Below, piece after piece: positions 35,503 through 51,194 of a stretch of DNA of 64,000 bases. Position numbers and translations under genes: made by a program. A model generated the notes under the pieces. It ran no database searches and was not told the origin of the DNA. It saw only the letters and a program-made list of their open reading frames with translations. Positions within the stretch are counted from its first letter, which is position 1. Each line of letters begins with the position of its first letter. Source of the stretch: an uncultured Alphaproteobacteria bacterium (lineage in GTDB: Bacteria > Pseudomonadota > Alphaproteobacteria > Rs-D84 > CACZYB01); NCBI GenBank assembly GCA_944392955.1, contig CALXYK010000010.1:22758-86757 (forward strand). Reading direction: 5' to 3'.

Positions 35503-36695
35503 CTAAATAACTCCATAATGTATTAAAAATGTTTTCCTTTTGTATTCTTATAACATTTTCCTTAATTTTATTTTTTTCTTCATCTTTATGAAGAATTAAA
35601 TATTCTAATATTTTTACTAAATTATTATTATCAATTCCGTTTCTGGCATCAAACATATAAGTTTCTTGTCCTAAATTTTGAGCCAACTCAATATATTTCA
35701 CCGCCCATCCAATAATTATGCAAGGAATATATTGTTTATATGCATGTACTATTGAATGAAATCTTGAAGAAATTAAAAAAATCAAAATTACTTAATAAAT
35801 TTGAAAAATCTATACAATTAAAATATTCATCAATAAATATAACATCTGAATTATCCTTAAAATATTCTTTTATATTTTTACAAATATCTATATCACATAA
35901 ATCATAATATGTTATATAAATCTGATATCCTTTACTTAATAACATTTTAATGCAATTTTGATAATTATCATATAATTTATTATTATCAGATCTTTCAAAC
36001 ACTCTTTTATTAGGGATAATTAAAACTTTTTTAGCAGAAGAATGAAAATTAAATGTTTTATTTATATTTTTCCTATAAATATGCTTGTAAGGCTTATTAG
36101 ATTCTAAAACTATGTCATTTGCAAGAACAATATTATTTAATCCATATGATTTTAACAAATCATAACCATCTTTTTCTCTACAAAATATTTTATCTACTGC
36201 TGATAAAATATTTATTAATTTTTTATTAGATACTGAAAAATTAAAAGGTCCAAACGATTGAGGTAATAAAAATATCTTTTTATTATATTTTTTAGCGATT
36301 TTAATTAAATCTAATAAACGTTTATTTGGTTTATTCCCCCATTGAGATGATAATGCATATCCGCTTATATCTAAAAAAACATCATTATTTTTATAAATAT
36401 TAACAAAATCGTATTGAGCTAATTTTCTTTTGTTATTTGTTAGAGAATATATTACTTTTTTTAGTTTGAATACTAAATATTTAAAAAAGCTTAATGAAGC
36501 ATCAGATAAGTTTTTATTTTCTTTAACTATTGTTATATTATCAAAATCATTTATGTTTATTTTCTCAAATCCATGCAGACATAATACTGTAATTTTAGAG
36601 TTTTCATCTCTATTTTTTATTTCAGTTATTAAAGTATAAAGCATAGATTCTGCCCCTTTGTTGGCAAAACCCGCTCCTGTTATTAAATATCTCAT
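35495..36695 (-). pseudogene. Polysaccharide pyruvyltransferase family gene, frameshifted at a T7 tract
   Basis: NKGAESM, QSFGPF, REK, and ISSRFHS in a second frame; removing one T at 35775-35781 joins both ORFs. Confidence 0.82.
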
Positions 36696-36710
36696 TAAAA
36701 TTTCTCCTTT

Positions 36711-37814
36711 TTATAACTCCATATTTAAAACTCTTTCTATCGCCTTGTCCATATCGTAGTATTTATAATCACCCAGGCGACCTAGGAATGTTATCTTATT
36801 ATCTTTTTTTATTTCTTTCAAATACTTTTTATATAATTCTTGATTTTCATCTTTGATTATTGGGTAATACCTTTCATTTTTACCCAAAACAAATGCTTCG
36901 GGATATTCAAATGAAACTATTGTTTTCCTTGATTTATCATTAAGGAAATATTTATATTCCCCTATTCTTGTAAATGTATAATTTTCCGGATAATTTATTA
37001 CGGAATTAGACTGATAGTATTCTGTATTAAATTTTTGAAAATCTAAATTTATACTGCGATATGGTAGTTGCCCATATTTGTAATTGAAATATTCATCTAT
37101 TGCTCCGGTATAATAGATTTTATCATATTTATCAACATTTGTAAAATCTTTAAAATCTTTGTTTAAAGAAACTTTTATCAATGGATGTTTTAACATATTT
37201 TCCATCATAGATGTATAACCTTTTAATGGAATACCCTGATATTTATTTTGAAAATATCTATCATCTTTACTTATATAAACAGGAACACGACCAGTTACAA
37301 GTGGATCTAACTCCTCTGGTTTTAATCCCCATTGTTTCAAAGTATAATCTAAAAAAACTCTTTTATACACATAATCTGCTAAAAAAGTTAAGTCTTTATC
37401 TTTACTTTCTCTTAACTCTAATATTGGAACTTTTTTACCAAAGCCGAATTTTGCAATTAACTTTTCTTCTAATTTTTCTGCTAAACATTTTGGGAATAAA
37501 AGATTTATAGAATTTAAATTGAATGGAACTGGAACTTCTTTGCCTTCTATTATTGCTTTTACTTTGTGCATATATGGGTGCCATTTTGTAAATTTTGATA
37601 AAAAATCCCAGACATATTTATTATCTGTATGGAAAATATGTGTACCATATTTATGAACACAAATACCATCTTCGTAATAATCGTAGCAATTACCACCAAT
37701 ATTATTTCTTTTATCTATTATTAAAACAGATTCTTGTTTTTCTTCGGCAATTTTTCTGGCAAGTGTGATGCCTGTTATTCCACAACCTACAATTAAGTTT
37801 TTAGAGTTTTTCAT
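36711..37814 (-). CDS. glf: UDP-galactopyranose mutase
   Basis: HKYGTHIFHT, LPYRS, YYP, GRLGDYKYYDMD. Confidence 0.96.
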   Translation of the reverse strand: MKNSKNLIVGCGITGITLARKIAEEKQESVLIIDKRNNIGGNCYDYYEDGICVHKYGTHIFHTDNKYVWDFLSKFTKWHPYMHKVKAIIEGKEVPVPFNLNSINLLFPKCLAEKLEEKLIAKFGFGKKVPILELRESKDKDLTFLADYVYKRVFLDYTLKQWGLKPEELDPLVTGRVPVYISKDDRYFQNKYQGIPLKGYTSMMENMLKHPLIKVSLNKDFKDFTNVDKYDKIYYTGAIDEYFNYKYGQLPYRSINLDFQKFNTEYYQSNSVINYPENYTFTRIGEYKYFLNDKSRKTIVSFEYPEAFVLGKNERYYPIIKDENQELYKKYLKEIKKDNKITFLGRLGDYKYYDMDKAIERVLNMEL

Positions 37815-37838
37815 TTTTAATATCCTCTCATATAATCT

Positions 37839-38702
37839 TTAAAATGTTATTTTTTTTAGTATTGGAATTATACCAAATAATTTATAATGTTTTTCTGTTT
37901 CCCATTCATAAACTTTTAATATTGTTATACCAAATATTATAAATTTATGTTTCCTTTTAAGTTGTAATTTAAATGGAATTTTAATATTATTTTCCTTTAC
38001 AAAATTTAGCATATAGTCCTTTGCCCAAATATGATCCATTCTTTTAAAATTATTTAAAGTGTTTACTATGGAATTTGGATTTGCTCTATAATAATAAAAA
38101 GCACCTGGAACCGCGATAATATTATTTAATTTAGAAATTATATCTATTGAAAATGGGACATCTTCAAAATATTTACCTTGTTCAAATCTTATATTATGTT
38201 TAAGTAGTTTAGAAGATCTATATATTTTATTCCAAACATAACAACATCTAGGGATATTTAAAATATCAAATTTTTCCTGTAATGTAGTTGCAAGTTGTTC
38301 ACTTTCTATTTTTAAACGTAAATGAATTTTGTTTCCATAAACTCTTTTTATAGGGGCACATGCAATATCTGAATTTGTTGTAATTGCAGTATTATATAAG
38401 TTTTTATAAAAATTTGAGTCTATCCAATCATCCGAATCTACAAAACCAATAAATTCCCCTGTTACATTTTCTATTCCTGTATTTCTTGCTCCTGATAATC
38501 CTTTGTTTTCTTGGTTGATAACTTTTATCCTTTTATCTTTTTTTGCATATTCCTCTAAAATACTTAAAGAATTATCTGTGGAGCCATCATTTACACAGAT
38601 TATTTCTATATCTTTTAATGTTTGGTTTATTACACTATCCAAACATTCGCTTAGATATTTTTCTACATTATATACCGGTATTATTACACTTACCTTAGGC
38701 AT
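37839..38702 (-). CDS. GT2 glycosyltransferase (copy 5)
   Basis: VIIPVYN, DGSTD, FVDSDD, FED. Confidence 0.92.
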   Translation of the reverse strand: MPKVSVIIPVYNVEKYLSECLDSVINQTLKDIEIICVNDGSTDNSLSILEEYAKKDKRIKVINQENKGLSGARNTGIENVTGEFIGFVDSDDWIDSNFYKNLYNTAITTNSDIACAPIKRVYGNKIHLRLKIESEQLATTLQEKFDILNIPRCCYVWNKIYRSSKLLKHNIRFEQGKYFEDVPFSIDIISKLNNIIAVPGAFYYYRANPNSIVNTLNNFKRMDHIWAKDYMLNFVKENNIKIPFKLQLKRKHKFIIFGITILKVYEWETEKHYKLFGIIPILKKITF

Positions 38703-39717
38703 GTTTATTTCTCCTTTTAATCTTTATTTTTAAGCCACACAATGTAATTATTTTGAATTGTTTATCGCAAGAATTTTTTATTGAAAATATACTTTGTAAA
38801 AAAGAACGATTGTGAAAAAGTATTAAATTTCTGTAATGTTTACTTAAACCCATTTTATCAAATCCATTATTTAATAAATATTCTAATACAATATTATATT
38901 CATTTTCATAATGACTTATAGTATGTAAATTATGTCTACATGTATCCACTACTAAATTAAAATAACTTTTTTTTACACATCCATAAACATGATGGGATAT
39001 TAAAAAATCTCTTAATGAAGTCAATGCCATTGTGAAATCTAATGGGAATTTATAATTAGTACTTTGTGAATTATTTTTTATTCCTATTCTATAACATACC
39101 AAATAATCACTAATAACTGAAATTTTTTTAGCAACAATTAAAGATGCCGAAGTAAAATATAAATCATTGGTTCTATAAATTTCTTGAAATTTTAAATTAT
39201 TATCATTTACAAAAGAGGTTTTTAATAATTTATTCCAACTACAATTATCAAAAATATTAAAAATTTTATTGGGAATATCCTCATAATTAAAAACTTTTTT
39301 GTGTATAAATTTATTGATGTTTCGTGCATTTATATATTTTCCTGTGGATGTACAAAAGTATTTAAAATTACATATGGCAATATCTGAATTAATATTTATA
39401 GCATTGTCATATAACTTTTCTAACATATCTAATTCAAAAAAATCATCAGAATCTAAAAAACTAAGATAGTCGCCTTTTGCAACTTCTAAACCTTTGTTTC
39501 TTGCCGCACCTGCACCTAAATTTTTTTGTTTAATAATCTTTATCCTTTTATCTTTTTTTGCATATTCTTCTAAAATACTTAAAGAATTATCTGTGGAGCC
39601 GTCATCTATACATATTATTTCTATATCTTTTAATGTTTGGTTTATTACACTATCCAAACATTTGCTTAGATATTTTTCTACGTTATATACTGGTATTATC
39701 ACGCTTACCTTAGGCAT
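38695..39717 (-). CDS. GT2 glycosyltransferase (copy 4)
   Basis: GT2 motifs; MPK start chosen from AGGAG spacing. Confidence 0.92.
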   Translation of the reverse strand: MPKVSVIIPVYNVEKYLSKCLDSVINQTLKDIEIICIDDGSTDNSLSILEEYAKKDKRIKIIKQKNLGAGAARNKGLEVAKGDYLSFLDSDDFFELDMLEKLYDNAININSDIAICNFKYFCTSTGKYINARNINKFIHKKVFNYEDIPNKIFNIFDNCSWNKLLKTSFVNDNNLKFQEIYRTNDLYFTSASLIVAKKISVISDYLVCYRIGIKNNSQSTNYKFPLDFTMALTSLRDFLISHHVYGCVKKSYFNLVVDTCRHNLHTISHYENEYNIVLEYLLNNGFDKMGLSKHYRNLILFHNRSFLQSIFSIKNSCDKQFKIITLCGLKIKIKRRNKHA

Positions 39718-40792
39718 GTTCATTTCTCCTTTTAATCTTTATTTTTAAGCCGAACAATGTAATTATTTTATGCTTTGCATCACTAGAATTTTTTATTGAA
39801 AATATATATTCTACAAATTTAAGATTTTTTGTATAAAAGTATTTTTTTAACTTATCAATGTCTTTTGATAATAAAATATCATAGAATCTATATCTAATTA
39901 GTTTACTATCTGGATATTTATATTTAGATAGTATATCTATAGATTTATCAATTGCATGCTTAACAATATTAACATTATTACAACAAAAAAAACTTTCCCA
40001 AGAGTGTTCTAATCCTTTATATATTGTTGAGAAAAATAATCTATCATATTTATCTTTATTATTTATATTTTTATTAAAGAAATCTAATGTATCTAGTCTA
40101 CTATTTAACTTGGAATTTATTTGCGCAATTAATTCTTTTTCTGATAAAATTTTATGAGATGTAGAATTTTCTCTTAATCTATAAGTATAATAAGCATCAT
40201 TGACTAGTACAAAATTATTGGCAATAGAGACAAATTTATATAAAAAAGTCACGTCCTCTAACCATCTTATATTTGCAAACTTAATATTATATTTATCTAT
40301 CAAATCTTTTCTATAAATAATAGACAGCCAACTAGATGCCAAATTTTTATAAGGAATTTTAGTAATTTTTGATGCCTTCGCTATTTTTAAATTTGTATTT
40401 GTAAATTTTATTTTTTGTTTTTTTTGATATAGTTGCTTTAAATCTCCTTTGATAAAATCATACTTATTTATTTTAGATTTATTATATAATTTTTTAAAAA
40501 AATCTAAATCCACATAATCATCAGAATCTACAAAACCAATATATTCTCCCTTTGCAACTTCTAAACCTCTATTCCTTGCGACTCCTGCACCTAAATTTTT
40601 TTGTTTAATAACCTTTATCCTTTTATCTTTTTTTGCATATTCTTCTAAAATATTTAATGAATTATCAGTAGAGCCGTCATCTATACATATTATTTCTATA
40701 TCTTTTAATGTTTGGTTTATTACACTATCCAAACATTCTCTTAGATATTTTTCTACATTATATACCGGTATTATTACACTTACCTTAGGCAT
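39710..40792 (-). CDS. GT2 glycosyltransferase (copy 3)
   Basis: GT2 motifs, FVDSDD, LED. Confidence 0.92.
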   Translation of the reverse strand: MPKVSVIIPVYNVEKYLRECLDSVINQTLKDIEIICIDDGSTDNSLNILEEYAKKDKRIKVIKQKNLGAGVARNRGLEVAKGEYIGFVDSDDYVDLDFFKKLYNKSKINKYDFIKGDLKQLYQKKQKIKFTNTNLKIAKASKITKIPYKNLASSWLSIIYRKDLIDKYNIKFANIRWLEDVTFLYKFVSIANNFVLVNDAYYTYRLRENSTSHKILSEKELIAQINSKLNSRLDTLDFFNKNINNKDKYDRLFFSTIYKGLEHSWESFFCCNNVNIVKHAIDKSIDILSKYKYPDSKLIRYRFYDILLSKDIDKLKKYFYTKNLKFVEYIFSIKNSSDAKHKIITLFGLKIKIKRRNEHA

Positions 40793-41780
40793 GTTCATTT
40801 CTCCTTTTAATCTTTATTTTTAAGCCGAACAATGTAATTATTTTATGTTTTTTATCATCTGAATTCCTTATGGAAAATATATTTTGAGAAATAAATTTTA
40901 AAAGTAAATGGTTATAAACTTTTTGAACTAAATTCGCCTTATAAATTAATTCATAATCTATTGATTTTATGGTTTTATATAATTGTGTAGTAAAAATATC
41001 TTTCAATGTGAATATTTTAAAATGTTGATATAACCTTTCGTATGTTAAGCAATAAAGTATATCAAGTTTATGTTTTTTCGCAAAATTAAAATTATCCGTA
41101 ATTCCTTTTAATAAATCTCTTTTCTTTTTTGTTGTCCATATAACATCTTTATGTCCTATTCTAAAAAGATATGTGATTTTTGAAATTGCATAAAATTGTT
41201 TAGCCTTATACATTGCCTTTACAAAAAAAGGCGGATCTTGAAATCGCTTATAATCAGGAAACAAAAGTTTATTTTTAACTAAAAAATCCCTATTATAAAT
41301 AAATCTGTGATACCCATAATCAAATTGATATTCCTTATATTTTATAATTTTATCCTGGTTAAATATATATCCAAAAAATGTTTTATTAAGAGAAGATTTA
41401 ATTTCTCCATTAAATAAATGACTGAAACTTCCGCCACAAATTAATACCTTATGTTTTTTGGCATTAGTATACAAAATTTTTAAAATATCATTTGTTGGAT
41501 AATAATCATCAGAATCAAGGAATATTACAAATTCACCTTTGGCAATTTTTATTCCTTTGTTTCTTGCTACACCTGCACCTAAATTTTTTTGTTTAATAAC
41601 CTTTATCCTTTTATCTTTTTTTGCATATTTCTCTAAAATACTTAAAGAATTATCTGTGGAGCTGTCATCTATACATATTATTTCTATATCTTTTAATGTT
41701 TGGTTTATTACACTATCCAAACATTCACTTAGATATTTTTCTACATTATATACCGGTATTATTACACTTACCTTAGGCAT
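40785..41780 (-). CDS. GT2 glycosyltransferase (copy 2)
   Basis: GT2 motifs, FLDSDD, FQDPPF. Confidence 0.92.
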   Translation of the reverse strand: MPKVSVIIPVYNVEKYLSECLDSVINQTLKDIEIICIDDSSTDNSLSILEKYAKKDKRIKVIKQKNLGAGVARNKGIKIAKGEFVIFLDSDDYYPTNDILKILYTNAKKHKVLICGGSFSHLFNGEIKSSLNKTFFGYIFNQDKIIKYKEYQFDYGYHRFIYNRDFLVKNKLLFPDYKRFQDPPFFVKAMYKAKQFYAISKITYLFRIGHKDVIWTTKKKRDLLKGITDNFNFAKKHKLDILYCLTYERLYQHFKIFTLKDIFTTQLYKTIKSIDYELIYKANLVQKVYNHLLLKFISQNIFSIRNSDDKKHKIITLFGLKIKIKRRNEHA

Positions 41781-42858
41781 TTTTAGATCTCCTTTTAATC
41801 TTTATTTTTAAGCCGAACAATGTAATTATTTTATGCTTTGCATCACTAGAATTTGTAAATGAAAGAATAAATCTAAATAATAATTTTAGCATAATATACA
41901 AATAAAAAACGAAGATATTAGAAACTAACAAATGAATTTTCTTTAAATCTTTCTTTCTAAATAAATTTTCATCAATTTCATTATTATTATAACCTTCTTT
42001 AAATTCTTTTGAAAATACTTTTATAAATTCCTTTTTAAATTTTTTATCTATTCTATTAAATGTAAACATATAATTATTATATTTTTTTACCCAATATATG
42101 CCTAGAAACTTTGATTTTAAATTTTCATTTTTTTCTAATATATTTCTTATATAATCGTATTCATTTTTCATAGCATAAACTTTATTTTTATTTTTTATTG
42201 AAGAATTTGGATTATCTCTTCTATTCATATAAAATGGAATATTTAAAATATATATCTTTGTTGCATACATAAATGTTTGAAAATAAAAACCATTATCTTG
42301 GTAAGAAGCACCTGGTGTTTCATTATGTCTTATATGATTTTTATTTATGAAATCAGTTTTATATATACCACTCCAAGTATGCATTATAAAGTTGAAAGTA
42401 TTTAAATCATTTTGTGGGTTTAATATTTTATTATAGTATGTATTTGTATTATCTAAGTGATTATAAAATAAAACTTTATCTTTGCCCGAACCTGTAAAAC
42501 GATAGAAGTCTGCCTTTATAAAATCTAAATCATATTCTGTGGCTTTATTATATAAGCTTTCATACATATCTAATTTTATATAATCATCTGGTTCTACTAT
42601 ACCTATATATTCTCCTGTCGCATTATCAATACCAACATTCATAGTATGTCCATAGCCACTATTTGCTTTATTTATAATCTTTATCCTTTTATCTTTTTTT
42701 GCATATTCTTCTAAAATACTTAATGAACTATCAGTAGAGCCGTCATTTACACATATTATTTCTATATCTTTTAATGTTTGATTTATTACACTATCCAAAC
42801 ATTCTCTTAGATATTTTTCTACGTTATATACTGGTATTATTACACTTACCTTAGGCAT
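41773..42858 (-). CDS. GT2 glycosyltransferase (copy 1)
   Basis: GT2 motifs, IVEPDD, ETPGASYQD. Confidence 0.92.
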   Translation of the reverse strand: MPKVSVIIPVYNVEKYLRECLDSVINQTLKDIEIICVNDGSTDSSLSILEEYAKKDKRIKIINKANSGYGHTMNVGIDNATGEYIGIVEPDDYIKLDMYESLYNKATEYDLDFIKADFYRFTGSGKDKVLFYNHLDNTNTYYNKILNPQNDLNTFNFIMHTWSGIYKTDFINKNHIRHNETPGASYQDNGFYFQTFMYATKIYILNIPFYMNRRDNPNSSIKNKNKVYAMKNEYDYIRNILEKNENLKSKFLGIYWVKKYNNYMFTFNRIDKKFKKEFIKVFSKEFKEGYNNNEIDENLFRKKDLKKIHLLVSNIFVFYLYIMLKLLFRFILSFTNSSDAKHKIITLFGLKIKIKRRSKNA

Positions 42859-43768
42859 TTTTAGACCTCCTGAATCTCCTTTCCATTAGCATAAATTTTA
42901 TTTTTTGGAATAATGATGCCTTTTGAAAAAAGGTTTGTTTAAAATCATTATAAAATTCGGTATGCCGAGCATAAGACCACCACATATCAGCACATTTAGT
43001 CAATTTATTCCATGGATTATAATTAATAAAATGATATATAATTCCGTTATTTTTTGCCTCGTTAAATTCTTGCTTAGTTAAAATTCCTTCGTTAATCATT
43101 TTGTGATATTTATGAGTTGAACGAGGCGTAAAATTATATTTCAATGGTAAAAATTTAATTCTGTTTCTGCAAACTAAATTCAAGATATCTTGATCTTTAT
43201 AATTGAATTCATATTGTGTTTGTGCAATAAGTTTTTGATAATAATTATCATTTCTTATGGATTTCAAATTTAGTAATAAGACTCCTGAATTTATATAATC
43301 ACCTCTTTTGACTTTGTTGGCAAAGATTTTTATCATCTTTCGTTTCCATGGACGTTTTAAATTAAGTCCATCCTTTGCACCATATAGCAAAGTATCCTTC
43401 ATATCTATATTATACAAACTTGATAATTCATCATTGAAAACAACATCAATATCACAATATATGATTTTATCAATATCTGGTAATAGTTTTGGTATTTGTA
43501 ATCTAAGATAAAAACCAACTTCTTTTTTATTTGCTAAGATATCTAAATCTTTGTCTGCATATAAAAATGTAATTACAGAAGATGAATCAAGTTGCTTTAC
43601 TAAACCACTTATATATTTTGTCATAGAAGATGTAATGTCATTTGAAACAACAGCATATATATTATATGAACATTTTCCCTTTGACACATTTAGTAAAGAA
43701 GACAATGCCACACAAAAATGTTTCCATAAATTTTTATCAAAGCAAAATGCGATATTTACTTTTTGCAT
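42851..43768 (-). CDS. GT8 glycosyltransferase
   Basis: IIYCDID, YINSGVLL, DQDILN, HF..PW. Confidence 0.9.
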   Translation of the reverse strand: MQKVNIAFCFDKNLWKHFCVALSSLLNVSKGKCSYNIYAVVSNDITSSMTKYISGLVKQLDSSSVITFLYADKDLDILANKKEVGFYLRLQIPKLLPDIDKIIYCDIDVVFNDELSSLYNIDMKDTLLYGAKDGLNLKRPWKRKMIKIFANKVKRGDYINSGVLLLNLKSIRNDNYYQKLIAQTQYEFNYKDQDILNLVCRNRIKFLPLKYNFTPRSTHKYHKMINEGILTKQEFNEAKNNGIIYHFINYNPWNKLTKCADMWWSYARHTEFYNDFKQTFFQKASLFQKIKFMLMERRFRRSKNA

Positions 43769-44694
43769 TTCATGTTTTCCTTTATTTTTGTAATATATTT
43801 ATAGATGATTTTATCTTCTATATCGTTTTTATCATTTTTTTTGAATGCATCTATAGTATATGGTTTATTTAATCTTAAAACATTGCCTCTTTGTATTTTT
43901 AAGATAAATTCTTCTTCACTTTTACAATAATAATGGTTGATTCTGATTTTATTTATTGTAAATGGATTATTTTTATGACTATAAATTTTTCGGTAATTTT
44001 CATCAACCGAAACAAATTTTCCAAAACTATATGGAATATGTGCATCCATACCAATAACTAACCTTGGATTTATTATTGATTTAACCTCTTTATTTCTGGG
44101 GAAATCATCATTTGCCCTTTTTGTAAATCGTTCGGTTAACAAGCCATCGGTTTTAGTTTTATGCCCATTACTACCATACATAACCCAATGAATGCTTAGC
44201 CCTGCATATCCATCATAATCATTTAAAACCTCGGGTATAGTGTTTTTTTCTACTGGAATAACAAATTCATCCGTATCAATGAAACCCAACCATTTTGTAT
44301 CATATCTATGTTTAAATAATGCATCATTATAAACTGGTCTTTGTGGTGATTTTCCTAGCCATTTAGTGTAATCTACAAGACCTTCGGTTATATATGGTAA
44401 TAAGACCTCATACAAATTATCAGACGAATCATTGTCATATACATAAAATTTTTCGACACCAACAATTTTATGATATTCTATCCATTCTTTAATATAATTT
44501 GCTTCGTTTTTTATACAAATTACAAATGCTAAATTATATTTAAACTTACGAGATTTTTCTACCTTAGCATTATGTAAAACAACTTTAATATTTTTTAGAT
44601 ATTGGATAAAAAATCCATCCCTTATTATATGCCTTAAACTTCTGGACCAAACAAAGCCACAGATTAAATTTCTTAATGACTTGTTTATATTCAT
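43756..44694 (-). CDS. GT92 / GT2-like glycosyltransferase
   Basis: IKNEANYIKEWIEYH, YDNDS, FIDTDEF, INHY; TAATG-coupled start. Confidence 0.85.
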   Translation of the reverse strand: MNINKSLRNLICGFVWSRSLRHIIRDGFFIQYLKNIKVVLHNAKVEKSRKFKYNLAFVICIKNEANYIKEWIEYHKIVGVEKFYVYDNDSSDNLYEVLLPYITEGLVDYTKWLGKSPQRPVYNDALFKHRYDTKWLGFIDTDEFVIPVEKNTIPEVLNDYDGYAGLSIHWVMYGSNGHKTKTDGLLTERFTKRANDDFPRNKEVKSIINPRLVIGMDAHIPYSFGKFVSVDENYRKIYSHKNNPFTINKIRINHYYCKSEEEFILKIQRGNVLRLNKPYTIDAFKKNDKNDIEDKIIYKYITKIKENMKCKK

Positions 44695-45425
44695 TATATC
44701 CTCCAAAAATTTTCCATCCATTTAGTTGGTTTTACATGACGAAAGCCAAATTTTCCCGTGTAGCCCTTAAATGCCTCCTCTGGATTGGGATGTCCATGGA
44801 ATATTAAGATTTTTGTTTCCTTTGGCAATATTGGAGATAAAAACCAATTTAGTGGGAAAGGTCTTAAACAATGTCTTTTGAAACTTACACACCAATTTTT
44901 TTTCCAATATTTCAATATTCCCTTTTGTTTCATAGCATAAGAAAGATATGCCTGTTCATTTCGGAACTGGGCTCTGATTTGAAAGCGGTTTTCTTCAAAA
45001 TAGTCTACAATATCTGGATATTTACCAACCTTAAACCTAAACACCGAAGAATTCCCAATATAATTTTTAAAATCCCAATCTTTGATTATTAAAAAATCAC
45101 CCTTTTCTTTGAAAAAATCATCTATGTTTTTCAAAATAAGCACATCTAAATCTAAGAATAAGGCATCACCTTCTAAATCACCTAAATTTTTTCTGAATAT
45201 ACCCAATTTGTTCCAGCCCCTTTCTGGACCAGGTTCAAAACAAACCTTTGGCAAAGGAAAAACTTCTATATTTTTATTCAAGCCTTTTGCATCATCTGTA
45301 AAGCAAACAAATCTATGTGGTAATGTAAGATTTTTTTCCACCATATCATACAATCTGTTAACATATTGAGGACCGAATTTTGTCCCCCATTTCATACAGA
45401 CAATATTCCTTTTGCATTTTACCAT
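44694..45425 (-). CDS. DxD-type glycosyltransferase of unassigned family
   Basis: CMKWGTK, FVCFTD, FLDLDV, NSSV, FHGHPNP. Confidence 0.75.
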   Translation of the reverse strand: MVKCKRNIVCMKWGTKFGPQYVNRLYDMVEKNLTLPHRFVCFTDDAKGLNKNIEVFPLPKVCFEPGPERGWNKLGIFRKNLGDLEGDALFLDLDVLILKNIDDFFKEKGDFLIIKDWDFKNYIGNSSVFRFKVGKYPDIVDYFEENRFQIRAQFRNEQAYLSYAMKQKGILKYWKKNWCVSFKRHCLRPFPLNWFLSPILPKETKILIFHGHPNPEEAFKGYTGKFGFRHVKPTKWMENFWRI

Positions 45426-45723
45426 AGATAATCTCCTTACATAAAAATAAAATATTTTGGGTTGTGGTAGAATTATCCTATCTTAATATATTGAATAATC
45501 TTAAATTTTAAATCAAAGATAAATACAAGCCACACGGCAGAGAATATATACCTAAACCTTATATTTTGCAACTACTTTTTCTTAAAATACAAAAATGCTT
45601 GTTAAATATTTTGTTTTGTAAATTTATTAAGTCAAACAATGTTTATAAGATATTAAATAAAACCTTTAAAAATATAAGGTTTTTGATGAAATTTAATAAA
45701 AAAAGCCTCATTTAGAGGACTTT

Positions 45724-45738
45724 CTGATTTTTGGTGGC
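45724..45738. repeat. att-like 15-bp copy of the tRNA-Met 3' end
   Basis: CTGATTTTTGGTGGC identical to 50290-50304; both copies are followed on the minus strand by a hairpin and T-tract. Confidence 0.7.
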
Positions 45739-45910
45739 TATTAAAGGATTAGTTTACTAGATTTCTATAAAATGAAATAAATTCTCATTCTAATCTATAC
45801 ATTATTACTTTACCTAACCCAACATACTATAAAAACTCATATTAAAAATCTATTTAGATTACCATTAATAATATTTCTATAAGAATAAATCTTTGATATA
45901 TTAATTTTAT

Positions 45911-47161
45911 TTAATATAACTTTATCTTTTCCAAAATTATATCTTGTGTAGTTTTATTATGCTTCTTTAATTCTTCATTTACAATATTTTCAATTGTACT
46001 TTTTAACCCTGATGAAATAAAAGAATTATTTGTTAAACCGATAGCAATCTTCCAAGGTTCTTCTATCTTGCCACCCATCTGACTTGTTAAATAAACAGTA
46101 TTTTCAATACCTATTTGATTATAAATTCTATTAGATATAATATTTCCAATAACAGTAAATAATTTTCCTGTATGATATACAGGATTTTTACCACATGGCG
46201 CTTCTAAAGAAATATTACGACAAAAAGGAATAAATCCACAACTTCTGTTTCCTCGTCCAACAGCCCCCTCATCACCACTTTCGACAGCGCTTCCTGTTAA
46301 CGTTAAATATAAATCATCATTTTCTAAATTATCTCTTGTATTTATAGAAATATTAAAAGTATAACCCAAGTATTTTTGGGATAAAATATCGATTAAAAAA
46401 CTTTTTAAAAACTTTATATTATTTCTATAAAAATCTTTATCTGGAGTATATAAAGAAATAAAAGCTATACAAGTTGTAATATCTATATTTTTTCCAATTC
46501 GTGTTCCCATTACTTTTATATCATTTCCGACAAAAGAATATTTTCTTTTAAATTCTTTAGAATTCAGTTGATTTTCCACATATAACACAACATTTTCTAA
46601 AACTGTGTATGGATAAAAACTAACTGTAGTAGATGTGTCATTTGTTCTATTCATATTATTATGATATTGTATAAAAGTTTCATTTTTTATGTTGAAAAAA
46701 CTGGAACGTTCATTATTTGTTGTTCCATCTTTCTTATATACGACACCGGGGCCTTGTGATGAATGTGTATTATCTATTATTTCTATATTTTTTTTACAAT
46801 CTATCATAGGAAATAGAAATTTCATATGTTCATAAATAGTTTCTGTTGCAATATCTACATATGGAATTTTTTCATTACAGAAATTTTCTGTAAATCGTCC
46901 ATTTAAGAGTATTCTTATAGGCTTTATAAATTCTCCACCACCAAAATATACTTTTGTTTTTCCACCTAAAATAGATAATTTATCAATCATATGTCTAAAT
47001 ATATGTCCATACTTTTGATACGTATATAAAGAATAATTAGCACTTATTTTTTCAGCTAAACTATCACAAATAGTATCAGGATGACCAATACCTTTACGTT
47101 CAACGACTTCATAATCTTGTTCATTAACATTAGTGTTTGAATTAAAAATACAAATATCCAT
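45911..47161 (-). CDS. mat: Archaeal-type S-adenosylmethionine synthetase
   Basis: VERKGIGHPDTICD, NDTS, DIKVMG, GDEGAVGRGNR, GKNPVYHTGK. Confidence 0.9.
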   Translation of the reverse strand: MDICIFNSNTNVNEQDYEVVERKGIGHPDTICDSLAEKISANYSLYTYQKYGHIFRHMIDKLSILGGKTKVYFGGGEFIKPIRILLNGRFTENFCNEKIPYVDIATETIYEHMKFLFPMIDCKKNIEIIDNTHSSQGPGVVYKKDGTTNNERSSFFNIKNETFIQYHNNMNRTNDTSTTVSFYPYTVLENVVLYVENQLNSKEFKRKYSFVGNDIKVMGTRIGKNIDITTCIAFISLYTPDKDFYRNNIKFLKSFLIDILSQKYLGYTFNISINTRDNLENDDLYLTLTGSAVESGDEGAVGRGNRSCGFIPFCRNISLEAPCGKNPVYHTGKLFTVIGNIISNRIYNQIGIENTVYLTSQMGGKIEEPWKIAIGLTNNSFISSGLKSTIENIVNEELKKHNKTTQDIILEKIKLY

Positions 47162-47171
47162 ATAAAACTCC

Positions 47172-47843
47172 TTACCGTTTTACATAAGTCTCTTCTAAAA
47201 ATATTTTATTATTGTTGTTGTAGATATTTATCTTATCAACAAATTGTCTGTAAAAATTAACAGCTGGTAAAACTTCATTGAAACCTTGTTCGATTAAATC
47301 AATTGGTATATACCCACCTCCATTTTTATAATGACGCTCTATTACTCTATCAATAGCTATATCTTTATCTACTAGAATAGCATTGATTTCTATTTTATAT
47401 CCCAAATTGCTTATATATTTAACCATATTTTTTTTATTTGAATCCAGACCTCCACAATCATAAAAAACATTTACTTTATTTGAAATCAAATAATCTAAAA
47501 TATAGAACGATAATTTTCTAGAAATTGTTTCACAAATTCGAAAATCATTATGTGATGATTTATTTAATAATTTTAGTTCTTTGAAAATTTGTAAATTATG
47601 CATAATTTCATCTCCTGATAAGAAGGCATAATCTTTATAATATTGCTTTACATTATTAAAAAATGTACTTTTTCCAGCTCCACTAATACCCAACATCATA
47701 ATAAATTTTGGTGTTGAATTATTAAATTTTACACCACTTAATATAGAAGAGTAAAAATTATCTATTTCTTTTTTTGATAACTCATTAACTTCATCATAAA
47801 CAGATTGCTTATAACATAAAAATTCAGAAATTAATACTCCCAT
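47172..47843 (-). CDS. Zeta-toxin-like P-loop kinase
   Basis: GISGAGKST Walker A, DEI, VFYD, AIDRVIER...GG.IP lid. Confidence 0.78.
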   Translation of the reverse strand: MGVLISEFLCYKQSVYDEVNELSKKEIDNFYSSILSGVKFNNSTPKFIMMLGISGAGKSTFFNNVKQYYKDYAFLSGDEIMHNLQIFKELKLLNKSSHNDFRICETISRKLSFYILDYLISNKVNVFYDCGGLDSNKKNMVKYISNLGYKIEINAILVDKDIAIDRVIERHYKNGGGYIPIDLIEQGFNEVLPAVNFYRQFVDKINIYNNNNKIFLEETYVKR

Positions 47844-48953
47844 TCATTTAACCTTTTCTTTAAATAATTTATCTAAAATTATACTTGTATTTTCTCTATA
47901 AATACGACTTTTTAAAGATTTTATAAATGCATTATCTGGCAATGTTATATCTATATTTGTTTTTATATTATACTTTTTTAATAAATCTAACAAATATGCA
48001 TGTTCATTTCTCTCAACTTCTTTTTCTATAATGTTACAAATTTTACTATATGGAACAAATGTATTAGATTTCCATTCATCATATGCTATTTGCTCTATTT
48101 TATTTAAGGGTATTGATATATTTGCATTATCAAAAACAAAATGTTTTAATAGTTGCCTTAGTCTATATCCATGATTATTATTACTTGGAACTATCCCATT
48201 ACCAGTAATTAAGATAGAAGTTCTTATAGAATCAATGATAGTTGTAATTTGATTGATAGAAACATTATCATTTTTAAATTCATCATAAATTTCCTTGTAT
48301 CTAGAAAAATAATAATTGTCTTTTTTAGATAACCATTCCATTCTTTCTACACCAAATCCTACTTCCATAATATTAGAAACTTGATTTGAATTGATAGGAA
48401 AATATTTCATAAAAATACATTCTCCCATTCTAAAATTATTATAATATAAACTAGCAACATACGTATTAAATTTTCTAGTTCCCCAAGTATTAGATTTTTC
48501 TTCAAACCTAACTAATAAATCATTATTATTATATCCATAATTATTAAGTAAAGAAATATAATTTTTTGTTTTATCTAAAAATTCATTATTTGAAATATCA
48601 AATATAATTGAAGAAAAATTAATAAAAGATGTAGAAACACCTTCTTTTGTTTTACCGATAAATTGAGTCCTTATAGATGGTTGATAAACACAAAAATCTT
48701 TTAAAATCTCATTGTTTTTTATCATTGTTTCTATATGCTGTACTCCTGCACATGTAAAAAGTGTTGTAGCATTATCTGTTCTTATAACATTATCCGCAGA
48801 AATTAATGGAACATCGTTGAAATATTCATGAATATATTGTTTAGGGAAATTATCAATATTTTTTTTATCTTTAAATCGGAAATATTCACCAGATACTTTT
48901 TTTAAATTTAAAAAAGAAGAAATTTTAGATATAAATTCTTTATAATTATTCAT
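47844..48953 (-). CDS. Stand-alone alanyl-tRNA-synthetase catalytic-core paralogue
   Basis: TTLFTCAGVQ, QPSIR, TSFINFS, EVGFGVER, DSIR...GIVPSNNNHGYRLR; no editing or C-Ala domain. Confidence 0.8.
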   Translation of the reverse strand: MNNYKEFISKISSFLNLKKVSGEYFRFKDKKNIDNFPKQYIHEYFNDVPLISADNVIRTDNATTLFTCAGVQHIETMIKNNEILKDFCVYQPSIRTQFIGKTKEGVSTSFINFSSIIFDISNNEFLDKTKNYISLLNNYGYNNNDLLVRFEEKSNTWGTRKFNTYVASLYYNNFRMGECIFMKYFPINSNQVSNIMEVGFGVERMEWLSKKDNYYFSRYKEIYDEFKNDNVSINQITTIIDSIRTSILITGNGIVPSNNNHGYRLRQLLKHFVFDNANISIPLNKIEQIAYDEWKSNTFVPYSKICNIIEKEVERNEHAYLLDLLKKYNIKTNIDITLPDNAFIKSLKSRIYRENTSIILDKLFKEKVK

Positions 48954-49019
48954 TTATCACCTTGAAATAATTATATATTGTGATACAATTATATAGTATA
49001 TTTTAAAAAAGGCAATAAA

Positions 49020-49925
49020 ATGTTTCATATATTTTCATGTAATTCAAAGACTATTTTAAAATGCTATCTTCCAGAACTTGATGGACATAAAATTTACTTC
49101 CAAGTATTCGGTAATCCAAATGGGAAACCTATCTTAAATTTTCATGGTGGTCCAGGTGCAAAAAGTAAGTTTAAATATGTAAAATGTTGTGATCTCAAAA
49201 AATATAAAGTAATCATTTTTGATCAACGTGGCTGTGGGAATTCTGAATTTAAAGATTTATTTTATAAAAATACAACACAAGATACCATTAATGATGCAAA
49301 AAGGATTTTGGATTACCTTAATATAAAAGAAAAGGTAATTTTATTTGGTGGTTCATGGGGGGCAACACTTGCACTTTTGTTCGCAGAAAAATATCATGAA
49401 TTAGTTGATAAAATGATTGTATCTCAGACTTTTTTAGCAAGGAAAAAAGATGTGGATTGGTTATATAAAGATTCAAAAATGTTCTATCCTGACATAATTG
49501 AAAAACTTTCACCATATCTTATAAACACAAATAAAGATTTGAAAATTTTATTGAAGCAAAGTAATACTAAAATTAATAAAACAGTAAAATATCTTACAAA
49601 TTATGACCATCAAATTGGGAAGTTAAAAATAAACATTGATAAAGAAATAAATGACCGTACATATAATTATTTTAAAGTTTATATGCATTATTACATACAA
49701 AATTATTTCATAAAAGAAAATGAAATATTGGATAATATTGATAAAATTAAAAATATTCCAACTCTTATAGTGGGAAATAGACTAGATTTCTGTACTCCAA
49801 TTGAACAGGCATATACATTGCATAAAGCAATGCCTAAATCGACTTTACATATTATTGATAGTTTTGGACATGGAAGCAAAAAACAAAATAAACTTTTGCC
49901 AAAACTTATAAAAGAATTTTTGTAA
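49020..49925 (+). CDS. pip: Proline iminopeptidase (S33)
   Basis: HGGPG, DQRGCG, GGSWG nucleophile, RLD, GH. Confidence 0.88.
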   Translation: MFHIFSCNSKTILKCYLPELDGHKIYFQVFGNPNGKPILNFHGGPGAKSKFKYVKCCDLKKYKVIIFDQRGCGNSEFKDLFYKNTTQDTINDAKRILDYLNIKEKVILFGGSWGATLALLFAEKYHELVDKMIVSQTFLARKKDVDWLYKDSKMFYPDIIEKLSPYLINTNKDLKILLKQSNTKINKTVKYLTNYDHQIGKLKINIDKEINDRTYNYFKVYMHYYIQNYFIKENEILDNIDKIKNIPTLIVGNRLDFCTPIEQAYTLHKAMPKSTLHIIDSFGHGSKKQNKLLPKLIKEFL

Positions 49926-50262
49926 TTTAACACAAAATTACATCTAATTTTAATAATTAGATAAAAATGAAAAATTATTTCAATGAAAATTTTATAAAAA
50001 TCCTCGTAAATTTCAATTTTTTTACTTTTTAACTTAACAATAGAAATAAATATGAAAAGTAAATATACTATTTCCGAAATGAAGAAAGAAAAATTTTATT
50101 GGATTCTAAATTGTTATACAATATTTTACCAGATAATTTACAATTAATTAATAACAATTTTACTAAATTTGTAAAAATTGAAAAAATTTATTTAATTATG
50201 AAAAACTTATAATAAAAATCGATATAACAAAAACTCTAGTCAAAACTGAGTTTTACAGGCAA

Positions 50263-50289
50263 AGAAAAAACCGCCACTAGGACGGTTTC
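50263..50289 (-). terminator. Terminator downstream of the tRNA
   Basis: AAACCG/CGGTTT stem followed by a T-run on the minus strand. Confidence 0.6.
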
Positions 50290-50297
50290 CTGATTTT

Positions 50298-50374
50298 TGG
50301 TGGCGCCCCCCAGACTCGAACTGGGGACCTGCGGATTATGATTCCGTCGCTCTAACCGACTGAGCTAGGGCGCC
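50298..50374 (-). tRNA. tRNA-Met(CAT), elongator type
   Basis: Cloverleaf with paired GGCGCCC acceptor, TTCGA T-loop, CAT anticodon and encoded CCA; lacks initiator features (Ile2 not fully excluded). Confidence 0.93.
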
Positions 50375-50441
50375 GATGTCGTAAGATGTTAAATCAATTT
50401 TATAAAAAAGTCAATATCAATTATTAAAATACCTCAAAACT

Positions 50442-51194
50442 TTATTTTTGATATTCGTTTAAACTCTTAATTATATTTTCCAAATTAATTAACTGCTTTT
50501 CGGATAAGGAAATTTCTCCCATTTCAGTATATTTAGCAATACGCAAAAATTCTCCGTAAACATATTGCTTAGATAACTCATTTTCAGCCCAATGATTTTC
50601 ATCTACTTTTATACCCAGTGCATCTATACTAGCAGTATACCCAATTGTGGAAATTTGACTTTCTTTAAATTGTGGAAGATTTTGTTGGGCGGTTAATTTT
50701 GCACGTAAAGTATTTTCCTTAGTCGTTAATATAGTAAGATGTTTTGCTTCCTTATAATATCCAAGTTCAGATGCATTTTGAAAGTTTTCCTTGGAATTAG
50801 TGCTTGTAGTTTCAAGAAGTAAAGATTTCTTAATTCCTATGTTATTTAACTCCTTTTGTATAATTTCTGCCTCTGGAATAGTAAGGGCATCATGCCAATT
50901 TCTTTTTCCACCTGCGACATAAAGGTTTTTAACCAACCCAGTTTCTTGCGAATTTTCTTTATAATTTGGATTTATTCCACCAGAAATAATTATATTTGTA
51001 TCAGGATTTTCCTTTATCACATTTAGTGCCTTATGAGATAGATTATCAAGAAATGCAATGTTGCCCATAATTTGAAAAATAGTTTCAGGATAAAATTTTC
51101 CTTCTTGATCTTTTAAAAAAAGAAATACTGTTATCAAACGAACAATTGTTTCGTTAAATTTAGGGGTTTTAGGTAGTTTATCTATTATTCTCAT
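50442..51194 (-). CDS. DUF218 (YdcF/ElyC/SanA-like) protein
   Basis: IISGG, PEA, LETTSTNSKEN, LRA, GEFLRI. Confidence 0.75.
   Translation of the reverse strand: MRIIDKLPKTPKFNETIVRLITVFLFLKDQEGKFYPETIFQIMGNIAFLDNLSHKALNVIKENPDTNIIISGGINPNYKENSQETGLVKNLYVAGGKRNWHDALTIPEAEIIQKELNNIGIKKSLLLETTSTNSKENFQNASELGYYKEAKHLTILTTKENTLRAKLTAQQNLPQFKESQISTIGYTASIDALGIKVDENHWAENELSKQYVYGEFLRIAKYTEMGEISLSEKQLINLENIIKSLNEYQK

Follow-up and report, generated by a model that had tools for sequence, protein, structure and literature searches.

Aminoacyl-tRNA synthetase (aaRS) paralogues that work outside translation form a small and well-studied set, and each of them (MshC, HisZ, GluQRS, AcmF and others) has opened new chemistry. 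As described in the available parts of two reports, AcmF from the ascamycin cluster of Streptomyces is a protein of 370 aa with aminoacylation and tRNA-recognition domains only and with the substitutions N219Q and D232E, and it transfers Ala, and also Gly or Ser, from aminoacyl-tRNA to the amine of 5'-O-sulfamoyl-2-chloroadenosine in the old adenylate site (PMC12945691, PMC4257720). The same parts describe AcmD as the aaRS that supplies the charged tRNA and AcmE as an alpha/beta hydrolase that removes the alanine and resembles the Xanthomonas aminopeptidase that dealanylates ascamycin (PMC12945691, PMC4257720). AcmF is also reported there to lack most ATP-binding residues, while Arg93 and Glu216 are kept. 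Among zeta-family kinases, AvrRxo1 makes 3'-NADP, and known members of the family transfer phosphate to hydroxyl groups on nucleotide-sugars or on the adenosine ribose of NAD, according to the accessible part of that literature. Here we describe a four-gene cassette at positions 45911-49925 of a 64,000-nucleotide stretch of DNA (the window) from an uncultured alphaproteobacterium (GenBank assembly GCA_944392955.1, contig CALXYK010000010.1, positions 22,758 to 86,757). The cassette encodes a truncated AlaRS paralogue, an archaeal-type methionine adenosyltransferase (MAT), i.e., an S-adenosylmethionine (SAM) synthetase, a zeta-toxin-family kinase and a prolyl aminopeptidase (Pip).

We hold it to be very probable that this cassette represents a real, conserved and horizontally transferred functional module. 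In the window it is a 4.1-kb mobile accessory block whose insertion site is the tRNA-Met 3' end, in a gut alphaproteobacterium with a reduced genome (0.9 Mb). Its core, the paralogue with the archaeal-type MAT, is an old partnership of two genes and common among Patescibacteria (the candidate phyla radiation, CPR). As to function, we give a probability of about 0.4 to a reading in which SAM or a near relative, made by MAT, receives an aminoacyl cap from the paralogue, loses it through Pip (or an S51 peptidase elsewhere) and gains a phosphate from the kinase.

Recurrence and identity of the gene products

Pattern scans returned six genome loci, from one alphaproteobacterial metagenome-assembled genome (MAG) similar to the congener G010, four Patescibacteria-group MAGs and one other MAG, together with 76 metagenome loci. 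Of these 82 loci, 81 proved to contain the paralogue, in 65 distinct forms at 95% identity. MAT adjoins the paralogue in all 31 distinct forms, mostly from Patescibacteria, that have at least 1.3 kb of sequence upstream and at least 2.1 kb downstream, and in 47 of the 65 when any amount of room is accepted. Directly 3' of the paralogue, 46 of the 50 forms with at least 750 bp downstream carry a gene of about 230 aa, which encodes an S51 peptidase (PF03575, 7.8e-23). The convergent loci have a 730-bp gap whose gene was considered as a possible kinase; this was rejected, as it also encodes an S51 peptidase.

Gene orders were counted over 39 distinct full-length paralogue/MAT pairs. In 15 of them the order is co-directional (MAT, paralogue, S51), with the MAT and paralogue genes abutting, and usually lies within a tightly packed operon Ino1-MAT-paralogue-S51-GT-GT4-PIG-L, where GT denotes a glycosyltransferase. 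In 23 the order is convergent: the paralogue gene runs into S51 with an overlap of about 10 bp, MAT is convergent to them, and SerRS is often found at the flank. The order paralogue, kinase, MAT was seen in one of the 39 pairs and in the window. The convergent-type genomes G044 and G045 have two SerRS genes each, one of them beside the module, and two co-directional-type genomes have one SerRS each, located elsewhere. By its score (475 bits, cut-off 302), the SerRS beside the module is a true serS. On one metagenome contig, a fused alpha-beta GlyRS of 1,018 aa (L039:11036-14089, 837 bits) lies directly downstream of the paralogue, in the slot of S51. The arrangement at L051:1075-6394 is atypical: an AlaRS-like gene followed by SerRS, an opposite-strand S51, Ino1 and a MAT fragment at the contig end mix both main layouts. 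One convergent-type locus has an additional S51-family paralogue, divergent in sequence, at a distance of 4.4 kb upstream of its module (L098:5338-5994).

An even sample of 301 Patescibacteria genomes, which includes the centre genome G045 and in which the counts are not independent because of kinship, contained the standalone paralogue in four genomes and PF01941 in 16. All four paralogue genomes also carry a MAT, and no genome of the sample has the paralogue without one. The two genes are adjacent in three of the four; in the fourth they are on separate contigs, both less than 400 bp from a contig end. The first-pass annotation had proposed co-location of the AlaRS core, the PF01941 MAT and the kinase in unrelated taxa as the sign of a system. 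These results show that the AlaRS core and MAT do recur together, while the kinase was found only in the lineage of the window. Nor is Pip the conserved hydrolase; in CPR an S51 peptidase takes this position.

The paralogue (369 aa, minus strand, 47844-48953) has a class II aminoacylation domain and a helical tRNA-recognition domain, without editing or C-Ala domains. Its sequence scores are low, with 29.7 bits against PF01411 (cut-off 30.3; residues 226-321 only) and 24.7 bits against TIGR00344 (cut-off 457). The AlphaFold model from a 29-sequence alignment reached a pLDDT of 85.7 and a pTM of 0.85, and its top Foldseek matches were the AlaRS catalytic fragments 3wqy, 2ztg, 2zze, 9jdn, 1riq, 3hxu and 4xem (probability 1.00, TMq 0.5-0.64), which cover archaeal, bacterial and human AlaRS and are followed by GlyRS alpha subunits. 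In addition, hhalign gave a probability of 96.3% for the alignment with the AlaRS of the genome itself. The AlaRS-core identity suggested earlier, weak by sequence, was thereby borne out, and the third cassette protein can be securely modelled as an AlaRS catalytic-fragment fold. The paralogue has neither the full length and family scores of a canonical AlaRS nor its Glu, Trp and Asn of E-I-W-N and Asp of DTGMGLER in the active site, and an 877-aa open reading frame (ORF) elsewhere in the host genome (G000) encodes the canonical enzyme (679 bits).

Residue equivalences were taken from the hhalign alignment to the AlaRS of G000 and family states from the 29-sequence alignment, in which 21 positions are invariant. 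The canonical motif 2 Arg (R95) and the second, adenine-stacking Phe of HHTFF (F110) are kept and invariant, the Trp before the GPCG loop (W157) is kept, and so is motif 3 GxGxER (G199-R204), with E203 and R204 invariant. The E-I-W-N segment is altered: the Glu is R175 in the window protein and Glu in 27 of the 29 members, the Trp is an invariant Gly (G177), and the Asn is E178, with Asp or Glu in 29 of 29. The Asp of DTGMGLER is E197 here and Asp in 26 of 29. The closest sequence likeness to true AlaRS lies in the helical tRNA-recognition block (ADHIR...PSN...GYxLRR). In convergent-type members (e.g., L098:9731-10918 and L074:9725-10918), an N-terminal Cys motif, CxxC...C...C, can be aligned with the Archaeoglobus AlaRS N-terminus; the window protein lacks it. 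Like MAT, the paralogue therefore shows features of archaeal type, and the alignment suggests an archaeal ancestry.

The paralogue belongs to a sizeable and unannotated AlaRS-derived family, for which Pfam and NCBIfam give only weak, sub-threshold AlaRS matches. A word-indexed search found 11 clusters. With an exhaustive profile search the number rose to 1,523 proteins at E<=1e-3 (true AlaRS included), to 470 at E<=1e-10 and to 283 representative clusters at E<=1e-30. Among the 150 matches listed, most are 320-430 aa long. The family includes natural fusions to S51 (P0146), to a class I SAM-dependent methyltransferase fold (P0129; MTS, TRM5-TYW2) and to a domain whose Atlas model resembles GT-A glycosyltransferases (P0148/L084, L084:3736-5757; TM 0.57-0.62). 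We also considered whether the paralogue is the sole, split AlaRS of CPR genomes. This was rejected, as a canonical AlaRS match was present besides the paralogue in all five genomes checked, as frames of 595-653 aa in four and as fragments across contigs in G041.

The MAT (416 aa, minus strand, 45911-47161) scores 342.7 bits against PF01941 (cut-off 27, 3.5e-102) and aligns end to end with the archaeal MAT 4hpv (1.7e-70, residues 8-412). It falls below the cut-off of the NCBIfam equivalog (313 bits, cut-off 481) and is therefore a divergent PF01941 member. Across 29 module MATs, 82 columns are invariant, including ERKGxGHPD and GDEGxxGRGNR, and the proteins look like working SAM synthetases. 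No MetK (PF02773/PF02772) was found in G000, and its PF01941 match is single. A complex prediction of MAT with the paralogue scored 0.00, which we take as no verdict and use neither way. Among 41 relatives of G000, a MetK-type domain was found in five, PF01941 in two and neither in 34; the MetK matches in those five come from short frames of 331-349 aa and score modestly. SAM import may be general in this lineage. Some copies of MAT are broken or split: G041 has a second PF01941 copy with one internal TAG and one TAA (G041:C99:2295-3329), and in L071:3280-4073 and L077:2698-3896 the MAT is split over two overlapping frames. These copies may be pseudogenes or assembly errors.

The kinase (223 aa, minus strand, 47172-47843; PF06414, PF13671) has the Walker A motif GISGAGKST and a conserved SGD. 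It scores 54.1 bits against PF06414 (cut-off 22.3, 1.8e-14), and its nearest Atlas clusters are assigned to the zeta toxin family (0.96). Its homologues amount to six clusters in 5.8 billion proteins, five with at least 78% identity and one with 49%, and among the recurring loci only that of G010 has both kinase and Pip. Against PDB sequences the best E was 0.11, i.e., no close characterised relative was found, and the model built on six sequences (pLDDT 59.6) was too poor for a fold search.

Pip (301 aa, plus strand, 49020-49925; GGSWG) is an S33 alpha/beta hydrolase that scores 217.8 bits against TIGR01249, below the cut-off of 259.75. It matches 1qtr (1.2e-44) and 1azw (1e-40), the latter of which we take to be the Xanthomonas proline iminopeptidase that dealanylates ascamycin, with the nucleophile motif, Asp and His aligned. 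A Pip remnant of 52 aa is found in the cassette-free congener G002 (G002:C31:3348-3518), with 72% identity to residues 236-301 and two in-frame TAA codons.

The first-pass annotation had described three coupled minus-strand genes behind a divergent promoter region shared with pip. The ORF coordinates are as it gave them: the stop of the AlaRS-like gene and the start of the kinase gene abut at 47843/47844, and between the stop codon of the kinase gene (TAA) and the ATG of MAT lies GGAGTTTTAT (10 bp). The intergenic region between the AlaRS-like gene and pip (48954-49019) is exactly 66 bp long as claimed. Of the four promoter-like matches that rank best in the region, two fall within it, TTGCCT-16-TATAAT on the minus strand and TTGAAA-16-TACAAT, with TG, on the plus strand. 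However, the total of promoter-like sites in the region is not above chance (47 found, 46.5 expected from shuffles). No riboswitch was found in 45300-50500 (Rfam, E<=1), where the search returned nothing but the tRNA and, overlapping it, two sub-threshold matches.

Mobility and origin of the block

The host genome has 915 kb in 17 contigs, is 95.6% complete and has a GC content of 30.4%. The sole stretch that it shares with G010 by blastn is the mobile block proper (45831-49926), which reaches from 80 bp beyond the MAT stop codon to one base beyond the pip stop codon. The two copies have 89.7% DNA identity over 4,099 bp and unrelated flanks. G010 carries the same four genes in another context, without a tRNA-Met nearby and without the repeat described below. 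Among the 41 related genomes, only G000 and G010 have a full-length paralogue together with a PF01941 MAT. In fusA, a gene that evolves slowly, the identity between G000 and G010 is 87%, the same as between G000 and the cassette-free G004. At 23.9%, the GC content of the cassette is 6.5 points below that of the genome.

All genes of the cassette had been placed inside a tRNA-end repeat, and this repeat is real. An exact 15-nt direct repeat, CTGATTTTTGGTGGC, occurs at 45724-45738 (distal copy, plus strand), where it forms an att-like scar made up of the tRNA-Met 3' end and 8 nt, and at 50290-50304 (proximal copy, plus strand), where it overlaps the 3' end of the candidate integration target, a tRNA-Met (CAT) on the minus strand at 50298-50374 (ARAGORN; Rfam RF00005, 64 bits). 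The whole genome contains just these two copies of the 15-mer, one on each side of the cassette, and chance would give none (100 shuffles). The wider match is 40 nt at 75% identity, and on the gene strand a hairpin and a T-run come after each copy. Thus the repeat of a tRNA-targeted genomic island is present but its integrase is not: none of the four ORFs of at least 100 aa between the repeats is an integrase or recombinase, and the block likewise contains no phage genes. Six congeners were compared in the surroundings of the DUF218 gene and tRNA-Met, where synteny is not conserved, and a clean empty site could therefore not be demonstrated.

The trees suggest two sources for the module in the window. 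By IQ-TREE, the paralogue nests in a 12-member co-directional CPR clade (100/100), as sister to L037/L048 (97/94, with a long-branch warning). In a MAT tree made with FastTree, the window pair stands on its own branch, outside both the co-directional clade (100) and the convergent one (98); this tree was made by the weaker method and has long branches, which tells against leaning on it. The identities are in agreement: the window paralogue is 29-37% identical to co-directional and 24-28% to convergent members, and the window MAT 37-43% to co-directional and 46-53% to convergent members. As the paralogue falls in a CPR clade and MAT outside both module clades, the pair seems to have been re-assembled and not merely co-inherited. 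Hence the cassette likely joins a paralogue of CPR type to a MAT of another lineage, as judged from these phylogenies. If this is right, the re-formed partnership is stronger evidence of functional dependence than co-inheritance would be. The window copy documents transfer of the module from CPR into a gut alphaproteobacterium in which no other SAM-making route was detected.

Directly beyond the cassette, ten consecutive minus-strand genes occupy 35736-45425 of the window (GC 21-31%). The five scanned genes nearest the cassette include three glycosyltransferases (GT2, GT8 and GT92-like), and the gene at 44694-45425 has no family match. The run looks like a variable surface-polysaccharide locus; it is outside the mobile block and not beside the G010 copy. 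The DUF218 gene lies at 50442-51194.

Proposed function and its alternatives

The module has the same cast as the ascamycin system, i.e., a paralogue, a hydrolase, often an extra aaRS, and a builder of a 5'-substituted adenosine with a free amine, and we therefore propose that SAM or a relative of it is aminoacylated. In this scheme, MAT would first make SAM or a very close adenosyl-sulfonium relative. The adenosyl compound would then bind in the former adenylate pocket of the paralogue. There, the acidic residue that has replaced the canonical Asn would accommodate a cationic sulfonium more readily than a phosphate. The paralogue would move a small amino acid of the Ala, Gly or Ser class onto the amine of this compound, most likely from aminoacyl-tRNA, as AcmF does, and less likely from its own aminoacyl-adenylate. 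The companion serine hydrolase, Pip here and S51 in CPR, would take the aminoacyl cap off again, so that capped and uncapped forms would differ in activity, stability or transport. Finally, in the lineage of the window only, the zeta-family kinase would phosphorylate a hydroxyl, by analogy with AvrRxo1 on NAD the ribose 3'-OH, for further modification or self-protection.

Several observations support this scheme. The core pairing is supported by the adjacency of MAT in three gene orders (31 of 31), the link to SAM beyond adjacency by the methyltransferase-fold fusion P0129, and the link to tRNA by the retained tRNA-recognition block and the adjoining SerRS or GlyRS. The hydrolase link is supported by the frequency of S51 (46 of 50), by the fusion P0146 and by the presence of Pip inside the 4,099-bp shared block. 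Simple housekeeping is not indicated, since a canonical AlaRS is kept alongside in the five CPR genomes and in G000, and G045 has MetK as well. No homologues of Ino1, S51, the glycosyltransferases, PIG-L or the PHP phosphatase were found in G000 (tblastn, E<=1e-3), so that the portable function needs only the cassette genes and general metabolism. The CPR core is embedded in an Ino1/glycosyltransferase/PIG-L operon, and the final CPR product may therefore be a larger glyco-conjugate.

A number of points weigh against the proposed scheme. The identity of the acceptor is deduced from gene linkage, and Ino1, GT4 and PIG-L in the co-directional loci, together with the GT-A-like fusion, offer a sugar or inositol amine as an alternative. 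No kinase was found in CPR loci when searched with the window kinase as query. Five relatives without the cassette have Pip homologues with 38-53% identity; Pip may thus be an ordinary peptidase that was co-mobilised, and its membership in the module is a physical one. The module MAT is the sole MAT detected in three of five CPR genomes (G041, G042 and G044) and in G000, and in such hosts it would also serve general SAM supply, which alone could explain its retention; G045 has a full MetK besides the module MAT, and G043 a MetK fragment. In addition, PF01941 occurs without the paralogue in 12 of the sampled CPR genomes, two of these copies being broken or sub-threshold. The active site also differs from that of AcmF as far as AcmF is described in the accessible text: R95, F110, E203 and R204 are invariant here, and the window protein has an Arg (R175) at the Glu position. 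The four invariant residues mean that the paralogue may still bind ATP and form an adenylate by itself.

Given the likeness to ascamycin, an aminoacylated adenosine-derived molecule is still the best reading, as in the first-pass annotation, although the phosphorylation that it also proposed can apply at most to the lineage of the window. Its statement that all three operon families consume ATP is true of the families and may not hold for the paralogue, whose adenylate site is remodelled. A more specific version, in which the alpha-amine of SAM receives the amino acid from aminoacyl-tRNA to give N-aminoacyl-SAM, a new kind of capped sulfonium cofactor that S51 or Pip uncaps and the zeta-type kinase of the gut lineage phosphorylates at the 3' position, is unlikely. 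If true, it would be a new branch of SAM metabolism, giving a storage, export or Trojan-horse form in ultra-small symbiotic bacteria, and a second and far more widespread natural reaction of the AcmF type, outside antibiotic synthesis.

The co-directional operon itself raises the first alternative, namely that the paralogue, like the aaRS paralogue MshC, ligates an amino acid onto glucosaminyl-inositol or another de-N-acetylated glycoside. The outcome would be a mycothiol-like or glycosylphosphatidylinositol (GPI)-like product or an envelope modification, with MAT providing SAM for another step or for the cell and the hydrolase acting as the matching amidase. The tight packing of this operon agrees with such a pathway. 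Without de-duplication, the co-directional loci include Ino1 in 10 cases, GT in 13, GT4 in 9 and PIG-L in 8, and some have a HisJ/PHP phosphatase in addition. Ino1 has its best match in TIGR03450 'mycothiol_INO1' (428 bits) and PIG-L in MshB/Mca, yet all of these family matches are below the curated cut-offs. Likewise, the fusion P0148/L084 joins the paralogue to a GT-A-like domain and a run of glycosyltransferase genes starts 485 bp past the cassette in the window, but this run belongs neither to the 4.1-kb block nor to the surroundings of the G010 copy. The convergent-type loci (23 of the 39 pairs) lack Ino1, GT4 and PIG-L beside the module, and G000 lacks homologues of these and of S51. As this explanation also leaves both the one universal neighbour, MAT, and the retained tRNA-recognition block unaccounted for, we consider it unlikely.

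The distribution of MAT could instead mean that the cassette was selected for SAM synthesis in hosts where MAT is otherwise absent. The paralogue would then be a non-catalytic or regulatory partner of MAT, as HisZ is of HisG, or a tRNA-linked sensor, and Pip and the kinase would be hitch-hikers. G000 has no MetK, and since 34 of the 41 relatives have neither MetK nor PF01941, such a host would profit greatly from gaining a MAT; in the 301-genome sample the paralogue is always accompanied by MAT, while MAT also occurs alone, and the canonical adenylate-site residues of the paralogue are altered. On the other hand, the 21 invariant positions cluster on the class II catalytic motifs, which argues for a probably working active site, and the natural fusions, whose partners are a peptidase, a methyltransferase fold and a GT-like domain, are of the sort usual for pathway enzymes. 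The module is retained in G045 despite a full MetK, the hydrolase link is conserved, and the stop/start abutment and the 10-bp junction speak against passengers. We therefore regard this explanation as distinctly unlikely.

The retained tRNA-recognition block, the fusion to an MTS/TRM5-TYW2-like methyltransferase fold and the frequent aaRS neighbours would also fit an enzyme that, like GluQRS (YadB), places an amino acid on a modified nucleoside of tRNA or another RNA, or that charges a special tRNA, with the SAM from MAT feeding a coupled modification. The references of an aaRS review include a truncated synthetase that modifies RNA. This is nevertheless improbable, as it gives no role to a conserved and even fused peptidase-type hydrolase and leaves the Ino1/GT/PIG-L context unexplained; a dedicated tRNA gene within the modules was not noted, though no systematic search was made. 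Last, a toxin or antiphage module, in which the kinase would phosphorylate an essential nucleotide-sugar or cofactor and the other genes would modulate or neutralise it as part of an addiction or defence island, is very improbable: the kinase is a Zeta_toxin family member and the cassette is mobile, patchy (2 of 41 relatives) and at a tRNA-end repeat, but no CPR version of the module yielded the kinase with this query, so that the kinase cannot be the point of the module, no small antitoxin-like ORF accompanies it, the block lacks phage and integrase genes, and PADLOC, which found no family for MAT, the paralogue or Pip, gave for the kinase only P-loop noise (matches of 37-45 residues, E 2e-4 to 4e-4), so that no support was found for the antiphage alternative of the first-pass annotation.

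Comparison with described systems

In line with the first-pass annotation, which knew of no such system, literature searches, in which subscription journals were thinly covered, found no description of an AlaRS-like + MAT module. A 2022 review of aaRS paralogues lists, under AlaRS, only amino acid:carrier-protein ligases. New here are the strict link to MAT with its counts, the co-directional seven-gene operon, the fusions, the duplicated SerRS and the map of the active site, as well as the transfer into an alphaproteobacterium, with kinase and Pip replacing S51. The tie of this family of 283 clusters to an archaeal-type SAM synthetase and a peptidase is unusually strict. The module points to undescribed chemistry, either linked to SAM or on aminoacyl-nucleosides, in CPR, a group otherwise regarded as metabolically minimal, and with four small genes this is directly testable. 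If the AcmF-like reading is true, the family would provide ready catalysts for making aminoacyl-nucleosides.

The kinase and Pip have counterparts in described systems. The window kinase belongs to the same P-loop family (PF06414) as the toxins of epsilon/zeta (PezAT) systems and AvrRxo1, the latter as far as the accessible account goes. It differs from epsilon/zeta modules in being a protein of 223 aa without an antitoxin partner, packed between two biosynthetic-type genes; where a small antitoxin would be expected upstream, the 369-aa paralogue is found. With the classical prolyl aminopeptidases 1qtr and 1azw, Pip shares the nucleophile motif, Asp and His, although it stays below the NCBIfam equivalog cut-off.

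HisZ is a HisRS paralogue that acts as a non-catalytic regulatory subunit of ATP phosphoribosyltransferase. The paralogue described here is likewise a class II aaRS paralogue of reduced length with a genetic tie to a metabolic enzyme, and it presumably has no part in charging tRNA, but it has invariant catalytic-motif residues and natural fusions to enzymes, whereas HisZ is non-catalytic. The mycothiol pathway (Ino1, MshA, MshB and MshC) shares with the co-directional CPR loci an aaRS paralogue as ligase beside an inositol-phosphate synthase, GT4 and PIG-L. However, MshC is a class I CysRS paralogue and the module has a class II AlaRS paralogue, mycothiol synthesis requires no MAT, the MshB and INO1 scores are far below their cut-offs, and the genes are absent from the window cassette, from G000 and from the convergent-type loci.

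The ascamycin analogy, already drawn in the first-pass annotation, is apt and now stronger, as AcmF is described, in the parts available, as a truncated AlaRS-like transferase flanked by an aaRS and an alpha/beta hydrolase. The window paralogue differs from AcmF by one residue in length, has the same two domains and carries E178 and E197 at the positions of N219Q and D232E, a comparison that follows the published description of AcmF. As in the case of AcmD and AcmE, an alpha/beta hydrolase (Pip) adjoins the paralogue here and SerRS or GlyRS adjoins it in CPR. Judged by the same partial descriptions, the module differs in having no sulfamate-building, halogenase or other acm genes, with MAT as the adenosine builder, and the conserved hydrolase in CPR is an S51 peptidase and not an alpha/beta hydrolase. 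While the acm cluster belongs to Streptomyces, the module is hosted by CPR bacteria and a gut alphaproteobacterium.

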